This document shows, in pieces, positions 14,626 to 17,062 of a stretch of DNA of 18,061 nucleotides. The notes beneath the pieces are model-generated. The model was given only the letters and a program-made list of their open reading frames with translations, had not been told where the DNA came from and made no database searches. The stretch comes from Candidatus Woesearchaeota archaeon (GTDB taxonomy: Archaea; Nanobdellota; Nanobdellia; SCGC-AAA011-G17; GW2011-AR17): contig CAYFIU010000010.1 in assembly GCA_964343245.1 (NCBI GenBank), positions 1 to 18,061 on the forward strand. Direction: 5' to 3'. Every line of letters begins with the position of its first letter. Position 1 is the first letter of the stretch. The position numbers and the translations under genes were made by a program.

Positions 14626-15639
14626 ATGTTCAAAGAAATGCTCCAACATGATGAAACATTGTTCAAGGATGAATTAGTATTAGACTATGACTATTTACCA
14701 AAGATTCTAAAGTTCAGAGAAGGCCAACAACAACACTTTGCAACTATCATTAAACCATTGCTACAAAAAAGAAATGGTTCAAATCTCTTTATTTATGGTT
14801 CACCAGGAATAGGCAAAACAGCAGCATGCAAACATGTACTAAGAGAAATGGAAACAGAAACAGATGCAGTTGTCCCGATATACATAAACTGTTGGAAACA
14901 TGACACTGTCTACAAGATTTTAGTTGAAATCTGCAACCAACTAAACTACAAATGGGTACAAAACAAAAAAACAGATGAACTCATGAAAGCAGTCTCAGAA
15001 ATATTAAACAAAAAAGCAGCAGTGTTTATTCTTGACGAAGTTGACAAGCTAAAAGAAGAACAAATTATATACCAGCTTTTAGAAGACATTTACAAAAAAT
15101 GCATTTTTATGATAACTAATGAAAAAGATTACTTAGCTAAGTTAGACCAAAGGGTAAAATCCAGATTACTTCCAGAAATGCTAGAGTTCAAACCTTACAC
15201 TTATGATGAAACAGAGGGCATTTTAGCTGAAAGAAAAGATGCAGGCTTTTTCCCAGGAGTTTTTTCTGAAACAGCATTCACAAAAATAGTTGAAACCTGT
15301 TTTGAAAAGCAAGATGTAAGAGTTGGAATCTTTTTACTAAAACAATCAGCAAACAATGCAGAAAATACTTCACAAAGAAAGGTTATGATTTCACATGTTG
15401 AGGAAGCAACACAGAAGTTAGATCCTTTTGACAAAGCAAAAGTCGACATGGATGAACAAGATAAAGAAATTCTAAACATTGTTAAACAAAATCCTGGCTT
15501 AACAATACCACAGGTTCATGAGCAATTCTCAAGAAAGTTTGATAAATCTATTAGAACAGTTCGAAGAAAGCTAGACAAGCTTAAAGAAACAAAACAAATT
15601 GAGTTTAAAGACGCACCTGGTGGCTGTGTTATTGTTTAG
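14626..15639 (+). CDS. cdc6: Orc1/Cdc6 replication initiator (AAA+ ATPase plus C-terminal winged helix)
   Basis: Walker A GSPGIGKTA, Walker B FILDEVD, sensor-like ITNE, and a C-terminal winged-helix-like segment (IRTVRRKLDKLKETKQIE). N-terminal LDYDYLPKILKFREGQ is typical of Orc1/Cdc6. At 337 aa it is short for the family. Confidence 0.9.
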   Translation: MFKEMLQHDETLFKDELVLDYDYLPKILKFREGQQQHFATIIKPLLQKRNGSNLFIYGSPGIGKTAACKHVLREMETETDAVVPIYINCWKHDTVYKILVEICNQLNYKWVQNKKTDELMKAVSEILNKKAAVFILDEVDKLKEEQIIYQLLEDIYKKCIFMITNEKDYLAKLDQRVKSRLLPEMLEFKPYTYDETEGILAERKDAGFFPGVFSETAFTKIVETCFEKQDVRVGIFLLKQSANNAENTSQRKVMISHVEEATQKLDPFDKAKVDMDEQDKEILNIVKQNPGLTIPQVHEQFSRKFDKSIRTVRRKLDKLKETKQIEFKDAPGGCVIV

Positions 15640-15805
15640 GGTTATTTCTTTATTCTGACGGCTGTCCTAGCAAATAAAAGCACCTTCTCCAATATATATA
15701 CCACAGTATCAAGTGAGTGACAGTGACATGGGTGCGCGCAGCGCTTATAAACACTTCCAACTATACTAATTGTAAGTCAAATTAAAACTTAATGGAGGTG
15801 GAAAT

Positions 15806-15952
15806 ATGTTGAGAACTAGCGGGAGCTATATCCAATGGACACAATACAAACAAAGAGTAAACCAACTAGAAATGTTACATTTCTTGCATACAACAACTCT
15901 CCAGTCTGCTAAAAACTACTGGAAGAAGAAAGGAGGTGATAACTATGTTTAA
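15806..15952 (+). CDS. Tiny ORF a, 48 aa, basic (MLRTSGSYIQWTQYKQRVNQLEMLHFLHTTTLQSAKNYWKKKGGDNYV)
   Basis: The ATG is preceded by GGAGGTG (15794-15800) with a 5-nt spacer. The stop overlaps the start of the next tiny ORF (ATGTTTAA). Below the length cutoff of the ORF track. Coding status unproven. Confidence 0.4.
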   Translation: MLRTSGSYIQWTQYKQRVNQLEMLHFLHTTTLQSAKNYWKKKGGDNYV

Positions 15953-16040
15953 GACAGAATTCATTGAACAAGTATTCAGCCAAACCTTGAGAGAACTACC
16001 AACAGAAAGAAAGGAGGTGAGACCATGGCAGAGATTTTAA
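15945..16040 (+). CDS. Tiny ORF b, 31 aa (MFKTEFIEQVFSQTLRELPTERKEVRPWQRF)
   Basis: The ATG is preceded by GGAGGTG (15932-15938) with a 6-nt spacer. It overlaps ORF a by 8 nt and ORF c by 16 nt. Coding status unproven. Confidence 0.35.
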   Translation: MFKTEFIEQVFSQTLRELPTERKEVRPWQRF

Positions 16041-16135
16041 CAATCTATGAAGAAGAAGATTTAAACAAGCTTCTAGAAGAAGAAGTAATAGACGACTTTG
16101 AAGAAGCATTCATGCGAGGTTATCTAGCGGGATAA
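16025..16135 (+). CDS. Tiny ORF c, 36 aa, strongly acidic (MAEILTIYEEEDLNKLLEEEVIDDFEEAFMRGYLAG)
   Basis: The ATG is preceded by GGAGGTG (16013-16019) with a 5-nt spacer. The extended 13-mer AGAAAGGAGGTGA is shared with ORF b. The stop overlaps the first bases of the next promoter box. Confidence 0.4.
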   Translation: MAEILTIYEEEDLNKLLEEEVIDDFEEAFMRGYLAG

Positions 16136-16145: not shown

Positions 16146-16167
16146 CTTTTTTTCTTTGTTTAAACAC

Positions 16168-16758
16168 ATGAAAATACTAGCATTCGCAGATCCTCACTCA
16201 CATGAAGAGCATATTAAAGAAATAAAAAAGAAATCTAAAAGTGCAGATATAATAATTTGCGCAGGTGACTTAAGCTGGTTCGGAAAAAACCTAAACAAAC
16301 TTCTAAAACAATTAAACACAATAAAGAAGCCAGTTTACATAATCCAAGGCAACCATGAAGAAGCAAAAGACATGAACAAACTTTGCAAACCACTAAAGAA
16401 TGTTCACTTCATGCACAAAAAACTTTACAGGCTAGGGAACCATGTTTTCCTTTTCTATGGCAACTCAGGACTTTCAACAAGAGAACCAGATTTTTGGAAA
16501 TTTGCAAAGAAAGCAATGAAAGAAGTGAAAAAAACAGACAAAGTAATTCTAGTAACACATGGCCCACCTTCAAAAACAAAGTTAGACCTTCTACCCTGTG
16601 GGCATGTTGGTTGCAAAGATATTAAACAATTCATATTAAAATACAAACCTATGTTATACATCTGTGGGCACTTACATGAGAACTTTGGAATAAAAGAGAT
16701 TAAGAAAAAATCCTTAATGATTAATCCAGGCCCTGATGGCAAGATACTTAAGGTATAA
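16168..16758 (+). CDS. Calcineurin-like metallophosphoesterase
   Basis: Ordered motifs: FADPHSH (DxH), AGDLSWFG (GD), QGNHE (GNHE), VTHGPP, CGHLHEN (GHxH). The track start at 16156 is TTG. The ATG at 16168 (MKILAFAD) fits the 22-nt promoter spacing. Confidence 0.85.
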   Translation: MKILAFADPHSHEEHIKEIKKKSKSADIIICAGDLSWFGKNLNKLLKQLNTIKKPVYIIQGNHEEAKDMNKLCKPLKNVHFMHKKLYRLGNHVFLFYGNSGLSTREPDFWKFAKKAMKEVKKTDKVILVTHGPPSKTKLDLLPCGHVGCKDIKQFILKYKPMLYICGHLHENFGIKEIKKKSLMINPGPDGKILKV

Positions 16759-17062
16759 GTTTGATTTGCATACAGTTATCATTTTGCAATTTGAATTCAA
16801 CCTTCTCACCTTTTCGCAAGCTCAACACATCACTAATCTCTTTAGGTATTCTTAATATTAAATTGCTTTTGACTTTACTAAGCTTAACTCTAAATTCCTG
16901 CTTCTTCAGTTTATTCAGAAGTAAGATTCTTTCAGCTTGGATAGGCTCATAAATAACCTCGCCACATCCCTTACAAACCCACCCACTAATTTTATACCTA
17001 TTAAATGTTAAATCTTTAGTAAACTTTGCTAATTTTCCGCATGAACATATAATTCCTTTCAT
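16748..17062 (-). CDS. Zinc-ribbon plus AbrB/SpoVT (MazE-like) domain protein, antitoxin-type
   Basis: N-terminal CSCG...CKGCG zinc-ribbon spacing. C-terminal KVKSNLILRIPKEISDVLSLRKGEKVEFKL matches the swapped-hairpin AbrB/SpoVT pattern. The start overlaps the upstream ORF stop (ATGA), with a GAGGT SD about 13 nt upstream. Confidence 0.7.
   Translation of the reverse strand: MKGIICSCGKLAKFTKDLTFNRYKISGWVCKGCGEVIYEPIQAERILLLNKLKKQEFRVKLSKVKSNLILRIPKEISDVLSLRKGEKVEFKLQNDNCMQIKLIP

Follow-up and report, generated by a model that had tools for sequence, protein, structure and literature searches.

The stretch of DNA analysed here (the window, 18,061 nucleotides) is one whole contig of the genome of a Candidatus Woesearchaeota archaeon, which is available as an assembly (G000) of 651 kb in 70 contigs with a completeness of 76%. 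On the plus strand of the window, a gene for a short Orc1/Cdc6 paralog of 337 residues (positions 14626–15639) is followed by three small open reading frames, ORF a (15806–15952, 48 residues), ORF b (15945–16040, 31 residues) and ORF c (16025–16135, 36 residues), all on the same strand. The predicted product of ORF a is basic (pI 9.9), that of ORF b has a pI of 8.3, and that of ORF c is acidic, with a pI of 4.05 and a net charge of −10, such that the products of a and c are oppositely charged. ORFs a and c share a reading frame and ORF b uses a different one; ORFs a and b overlap by 8 nt (ATGTTTAA) and ORFs b and c by 16 nt. The three ATG start codons, at 15806, 15945 and 16025, are preceded by the sequence GGAGGTG at 15794–15800 (SD1), 15932–15938 and 16013–16019, with spacings of 5, 6 and 5 nt, respectively. 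The latter two copies form part of the longer Shine-Dalgarno sites SD2 (15931–15939) and SD3 (16012–16020), both with the sequence AGGAGGTGA, which lie inside the ends of ORFs a and b, respectively, and sit within an identical 13-mer, AGAAAGGAGGTGA. This arrangement had been described in the original prediction, a reading of the bare sequence; all of its coordinates, lengths and spacings are reproduced here, the 13-mer is present at both sites, and the overlaps and frames agree with the ORF listing. The automatic listing begins ORF b at a GTG within SD2, but in the related genome G001, which belongs to the same genus, it is the ATG equivalent to 15945 that is conserved.

The 3′ end of the 16S rRNA reads GGATCACCTCCT in three other genomes from this family (the 16S rRNA gene of G000 itself is not assembled), so that SD2 and SD3 can pair with it over 9 nt. 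Sites complementary to this 3′ end are found 5–6 nt before the starts of all three ORFs. The window contains four copies of GGAGGTG, against 1.16 expected, and a count of at least four is reached in 6 of 200 shuffled sequences, which taken alone is weak evidence. In the genome as a whole the motif occurs 35 times on the two strands of the 651 kb, with about 13 copies preceding ATG-initiated ORFs of at least 23 residues, and three of the 35 fall inside a single 226-nt stretch of the a-b-c cassette. Both the complementarity to the 16S 3′ end and the stop/start overlaps (of the ATGA type, up to 17 nt) are shared with the SD-led, translationally coupled genes of other archaeal operons. The cassette differs from these in that its first gene, too, is preceded by a leader with a perfect SD site, whereas the first genes of this genome are mostly leaderless, and in that all three of its products are microproteins.

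Upstream of ORF a lies a promoter element of about 70 nt (15685–15756, plus strand), consisting of tandem GTGACA repeats, a GC-rich block (GGGTGCGCGCAGCGC) and a TATA box, TTATAAA, at 15745–15751 (within CTTATAAA at 15744–15751). The element is present in 13 copies in the genome according to an nhmmer search (E<1e-4), or 12 when a regular expression for its core is used; in addition to the copy in the window these are located on contigs C1, C3 (two copies), C4, C7, C8, C9, C19, C20, C21, C30 and C32. Ten copies precede leaderless genes, with the end of the TATA box 21–23 nt before the ATG (18 nt for one copy that precedes a short ORF). The genes concerned are LAGLIDADG-type genes (three with Pfam support from LAGLIDADG_3, six by similarity), two TnpB/Cas12f-like genes and a gene for a Hef helicase-nuclease (DEAD, ERCC4 and HhH domains). 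At the cassette the distance from TATA box to ATG is 54 nt, and by analogy with the 22–23-nt spacing of the sister promoters transcription would start near 15774, resulting in a 5′ leader of about 31 nt (15774–15805) that carries SD1. The TATA box that had been suggested for this region is therefore indeed present, and the leader of about 30 nt that was expected to follow from it is consistent with the sister promoters.

Two further copies of the element differ from those before the leaderless genes. The copy on C8 (locus L079, 321–551) precedes an ORF of 77 residues without a family match, the leader of which contains an SD-like sequence, TAGGAGGG. The copy on C9 (in the last 130 nt of locus L084) is located about 70 nt from the end of the contig, where no ORF is called and the sequence that follows is not coding-like. 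A role of this copy as an rRNA promoter was considered and rejected, as the rRNA operons of relatives use an ordinary AAACCTTTAAATA-type box.

The core of the element is kept at the cassette in the genomes G001, G002, G003 and G017. In the latter three it is also found before TnpB, Bro-N-like and other genes, while G001 has it at the cassette only. Judged from this distribution, the element seems to be native to the cassette and to be shared with, or borrowed by, DNA-transaction and selfish genes; its restriction to the cassette in G001 makes it more likely that the mobile genes borrowed it. The genes led by the element could form a co-regulated set, or they could represent the capture of a strong promoter by selfish genes. 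Such a promoter module, rather than an isolated ORB, also accounts for a stretch here that could be taken for a weak origin candidate.

To assess the coding capacity of the three ORFs, the region was compared with that of G001, which it matches at 75% nucleotide identity. G001 retains all three ORFs, an SD-like site before each of them, and identical overlaps of 8 and 16 nt. In codon-based alignments ORF a shows 38 identical residues out of 47, with a pS of 0.545, a pN of 0.087 and a dN/dS of about 0.095, and for ORFs b and c pN (0.23 and 0.15, respectively) is well below pS (0.80 and 0.84, respectively). Synonymous sites are thus close to saturation while the proteins are kept, which excludes chance ORFs, a decayed gene and a purely RNA-level element. 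The substitutions show the synonymous bias expected of coding sequences, and in the orthologous regions the ATG/SD pairs and the tight junctions are kept without any disruption of the frames. The three ORFs are real genes under selection at the protein level. That they might be chance ORFs, or the remains of one longer gene that has decayed, could be argued from their very short length, their spread over two frames and the modest size of the GGAGGTG excess in the window, but each piece has its own SD site and start codon in many genomes, each is under purifying selection, and hundreds of homologs exist; this explanation is already refuted by the comparative data. The proposed small-protein operon with SD-led genes and a layout typical of translational coupling is borne out by the conserved starts, SD sites and junctions and by the selection on its products, and the stretch is almost certainly a conserved, tricistronic microprotein operon of the expressed type. 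Scans of the window for Rfam families and tRNAs gave no matches. A leucine-rich ORF of 37 residues antisense to ORF c (15996–16109, minus strand) was rejected as an artefact that mirrors the GAA-rich coding strand, since the codon-position pattern favours the plus strand.

Downstream of the cassette, a run of seven T residues (16147–16153) starts 11 nt after the stop codon of ORF c, within the region occupied by the promoter of the following gene, and might act as an archaeal oligo-T terminator. That gene (16168–16758) encodes a metallophosphoesterase and is served by a promoter box of its own with the standard spacing of 22 nt; an AbrB/MazE-type gene lies nearby, at 16748–17062. The position of the short ORFs just upstream of another gene, with a T-run in between, and the finding that the same phosphoesterase gene follows the cassette in G071 might indicate that the ORFs are upstream ORFs, or part of a leader, controlling the metallophosphoesterase gene, a regulatory leader having been among the suggested roles. 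However, the amino acid sequences of a, b and c are under selection, the gene downstream is a different one in G001, G037, G063 and G064, and the phosphoesterase gene has its own promoter box. The variable downstream gene and the separate promoter both argue against a leader function, and neither hallmark of a leader peptide or attenuator, i.e., a fixed regulated gene on the 3′ side and a peptide that is free of selection, is observed at the cassette. Control of the phosphoesterase gene by the cassette is accordingly considered highly improbable. As separate observations, the G001 locus has an additional gene inserted between orc1 and the cassette, and directly after ORF c (L010, about 1925–2070) it contains a fourth small ORF of 48 residues that looks ribbon-helix-helix-like by eye.

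The cassette is widely distributed in the order. Of 240 genomes belonging to the order, 179 gave a match at E≤0.1 when searched in six frames with the sequence of c. At the 30 best loci, which were selected by their c score and therefore over-sample the closer relatives, nearly every homolog starts with M-(D/N)-I-Y and is preceded, at a distance of 5–9 nt, by a site resembling GGAGG or GGTG. An ortholog of the window Orc1/Cdc6 is located directly upstream on the same strand at 25 of these 30 loci, the other five comprising one truncated locus, two fusions to zinc fingers and two others. The same arrangement is found at six out of seven further loci, which carry triplets, and in G037, G112 and G004. 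At least eight families in the order share the synteny with the same Orc1 paralog, and among them the gene on the 3′ side of the cassette varies. In many families the cassette recurs either as an a-b-c triplet or as b-c alone; full triplets from other families are present in G002, G063, G064, G065 and G071, in each case behind an Orc1 ortholog. The junctions within the triplets, in seven loci, vary between an overlap of 17 nt and a gap of 5 nt, with an SD-like site at each, such that a stop/start overlap or very short gap is conserved in the orthologs, as in an operon. Homologs of ORF a are found in 29 of the 240 genomes, always beside c. At most of the loci examined a b-like ORF abuts or overlaps the start of c in another frame; against a profile built from these upstream ORFs of relatives, the window ORF b reaches 24 bits, compared with 13.9 bits for the best of 2000 shuffled sequences.

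In several genomes members of the cassette are fused. Fusions of a to b occur in genus g10 and others, where a start of the a type (M-x-x-T-S-x-S-Y) is joined to b in an ORF of approximately 42 residues. Natural b-c fusions are present in G178 (locus L040) and P0243, and in P0077 an a-type sequence is joined to c. The existence of all three pairwise fusions suggests that the products of a, b and c act together. The possibility that a and b arose by a genus-specific split of one ancestral ORF was rejected, because homologs of a occur in several other families; the fused ORFs of genus g10 thus represent the derived state. A profile of these fused ORFs scores 2.6 bits against a, which is not significant, and the homology of the shared M-x-T-S-x-S-Y start is argued from its position only.

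The distribution of the cassette also bears on its proposed relation to toxin–antitoxin systems and mobile elements. The opposite charges of a and c, the proximity of the AbrB/MazE-type gene, and the use of the same promoter element by TnpB, LAGLIDADG and Bro-N-like genes in G000 and related genomes would fit an addiction pair of a basic and an acidic partner, or what is left of a replication module of plasmid or viral origin, with an Orc1-like gene and small genes; a toxin/antidote-like function and a virus or plasmid remnant had been put forward for this stretch. Yet a, b, c and their fusions match no family in Pfam, PHROGs or PADLOC that would indicate a toxin, a defence function or a phage origin; the cassette is a single-copy, syntenic core locus across the order, unlike mobile modules; and in G001 the promoter element does not occur outside the cassette. 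Neither a known toxin or antitoxin fold nor the patchy, mobile, multi-copy distribution of type II toxin–antitoxin systems is seen. An origin of this kind is therefore regarded as very unlikely, and the toxin–antitoxin reading is not supported by the data, as is also the case for the leader-peptide and pseudogene readings.

The conserved upstream neighbour of the cassette is a genuine member of the initiator family. The window Orc1 contains the Pfam domains AAA_22 and Cdc6_lid and a C-terminal winged helix-turn-helix domain (HTH_24), and it matches the ORC1-type model NF001624 of NCBIfam over its full length with 225 bits (for TIGR02928 it scores 180.2, against a cut-off of 181.3). In G001, G004, G037 and G112 there are two Orc1/Cdc6 paralogs, of which the short one (about 355 residues) is always located beside the cassette and the longer one (about 405–413 residues) elsewhere. 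Only the short paralog was found in G000, and the long one is probably missing due to the incompleteness of the assembly. Since relatives have a second, longer paralog, the main initiator may be a protein other than the neighbour of the cassette. In the closed 737-kb genome G037 the GC skew is negative throughout, with no turning point and no origin signal, and skew-based origin calling fails in this lineage. Initiation of replication in archaea is thought to require little beyond Orc1/Cdc6 and MCM, and to our knowledge no small accessory factors have been described.

A conserved three-gene operon beside a replication-initiator locus, and named for that adjacency, has been reported in haloarchaea: the oapABC genes (now arvABC) of Haloferax are located beside orc1/oriC. 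Vesicle formation is driven by OapA, a small GTPase, and OapB contains a DUF2073 domain (PMC10927574). These “origin-associated” genes show that adjacency to replication genes can mislead (PMC10927574). The resemblance is one of layout; there is no sequence relation, the products of the present cassette are peptides of 31–48 residues, of which a and c are predicted to be helical, and a Pfam search with a, b and c gave no GTPase or DUF2073 signal, such that the cassette does not belong to the Oap/Arv group.

AlphaFold2 models were examined for a and c. Protein a, folded alone, is predicted to form one long helix (residues 11–43) with a pLDDT of 83. Protein c is predicted with a pLDDT of 94 as a helical hairpin, in which a short N-terminal arm with an invariant tyrosine is followed by two helices comprising residues 10–18 and 24–35. 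The sequence motifs of the two shorter proteins are LDxxxIExLFSxQLxxLP, the core motif of b, and IYxxxDxxxLLExDEIxxxEEGFMxGY for c. When a, b, c, the fusions and the c alignment were compared with Pfam, NCBIfam, PHROGs and PADLOC, zinc-finger matches were the only ones obtained, and these concern the long forms exclusively. A sequence-profile search of the PDB gave nothing credible, and a Foldseek search of the c model against the PDB gave no match with an E-value under 4.8, a result to be expected for a hairpin of 36 residues. The ESM Atlas contains only unnamed clusters for c and no match for a, and searches of the literature with the motif strings, or for small proteins related to DPANN archaea or Orc1, found nothing relevant. 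Standard annotation had been expected to overlook the three ORFs altogether, but public protein collections already contain a and c as unnamed proteins, which occur in NCBI, ENA and Tara records, including a contig of 57.8 kb; for b, which is absent from all of these collections, the expectation holds. The absence of b shows that conserved genes of about 30 codons are still overlooked by gene callers.

The c proteins form a large family, represented here by the alignments A1, A2 and A5, for which no Pfam, NCBIfam, PHROG or PADLOC model exists. A word-indexed search of 5.8 billion proteins gave 430 clusters, all labelled hypothetical and assigned to “Nanoarchaeota archaeon” wherever a source name is given. 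Among 1.84 billion proteins, 706 representative clusters match at E≤1e-3, with lengths of 31–92 residues in all of the 150 matches listed. Across the phylum, the motif was detected in 284 of the 401 genomes that were sampled, with one to six matches per genome; this tally takes in five unpublished genomes (G439, G440, G499, G533 and G565), none of which supplied a locus examined in detail. Its hallmarks are the invariant residues Tyr8, Met30 and Gly32 and the near-invariant residues Ile22, Glu26, Phe29 and Tyr33, in a frame of approximately 32 residues. The window c protein contains all of these residues, and its score of 66 bits against the profile of the family (E 2e-18) identifies it as a member. 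We regard c as a new and widespread protein motif.

The c motif is not confined to free-standing proteins. It is found at the C-terminus of an ScpB, a protein of chromosome condensation (PF04079, E 7e-35; G480, L070, 881–1669), at the N-terminal end of a membrane protein of the secretion machinery, SecD/F (PF02355; G383, L069, 1446–2834), directly before zinc fingers of the zf-FCS/TRASH type, and in tandem copies. The ScpB of G000 itself lacks it. Zinc-finger matches (PF06467, PF04945 or PF24273) are restricted to the longer relatives L037, L042, L072, L073 and L078, which carry such a finger right after the c motif. The window c protein has no cysteines and no zinc finger and is not a member of the TRASH/zf-FCS/YHS proteins; only the N-terminal acidic module, which is not described by any Pfam model, is common to both. 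The fusions of c to such unrelated machineries as ScpB and SecD/F suggest, from the domain arrangements, a shared docking function. In bacteria, the C-terminal tip of SSB and the C-terminal peptide of FtsZ are acidic docking tails. Like these, c is a short acidic segment that ends in aromatic residues and is attached to diverse proteins, although it also stands alone; unlike the disordered tails, it is predicted to fold into a two-helix hairpin. The likeness is meant as an analogy, by which the presence of the c motif on diverse proteins would hint at a common binding partner.

The most plausible explanation that we can offer for these observations, and one we consider rather probable, is that the cassette encodes a translationally coupled complex of helical microproteins, possibly accessory to Orc1. 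The operon would be transcribed from its own promoter, consisting of the conserved GC-rich upstream element and the TATA box at 15745–15751, and its translation would begin at the three strong SD sites. The stop/start overlaps would couple the three frames, such that a, b and c are produced in roughly matched amounts. The long basic helix of a, the short protein b and the acidic hairpin of c would then assemble into one small helical complex, a step that we judge likely in its own right. The opposite charges of a and c, together with their predicted helices, fit products that work jointly. This complex may serve as an accessory factor or modulator of the short Orc1 paralog, in replication initiation or in chromosome biology; this part of the explanation, that the complex works with Orc1 or in chromosome biology, is regarded as possible. 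It draws on the retention of the cassette behind the short Orc1 paralog across the order and on the fusion of c to ScpB, which tentatively indicate a role related to replication or the chromosome.

The main rival to a role with Orc1 accepts the operon as real, but takes c to be a general docking or dimerisation hairpin and a, b and c to act outside replication, with the adjacency to orc1 being incidental, i.e., historical or related to dosage or co-expression only. The occurrence of the c motif on SecD/F and TRASH-finger proteins argues for such a general module and against a replication-specific one. Consistent with this, the motif is also found on ScpB, in tandem, and in one to six copies per genome, and adjacency to Orc1 is rare outside the order, where no more than three of 16 loci have orc1 in the vicinity of the best c copy; the haloarchaeal oap genes provide a precedent for an adjacency that misleads. 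On the other hand, the synteny with the same Orc1 survives in at least eight families while the downstream gene changes. Moreover, G000, at its completeness of 76%, contains a single c-motif match and thus shows no partner with a c tail. We consider an incidental adjacency to be a tentative alternative, with a minority chance of being correct.

The explanation of the cassette as a coupled microprotein complex can be extended to a more specific proposal, which we put forward as a speculation that is rather unlikely to hold. In Woesearchaeales-type DPANN archaea, the products of a, b and c might constitute an accessory complex that is dedicated to the short Orc1/Cdc6 paralog and modulates either initiation or a set of Orc1-controlled genes that share the promoter with GACA repeats and a GC-rich block. 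The hairpin of c would then be a new docking module that brings ScpB, SecD/F and TRASH proteins to the same hub.

DPANN genomes are minimal, and a conserved triad beside an Orc1 paralog, with a predicted strong expression, is therefore unlikely to be dispensable. The shared promoter defines a small set of candidates for co-regulation, comprising the Hef, LAGLIDADG and TnpB genes and the a-b-c cassette. Naming the c motif, with its confidently predicted fold and hundreds of relatives, would annotate a part of the “dark matter” of the DPANN archaea and would give a handle on its binding partner.
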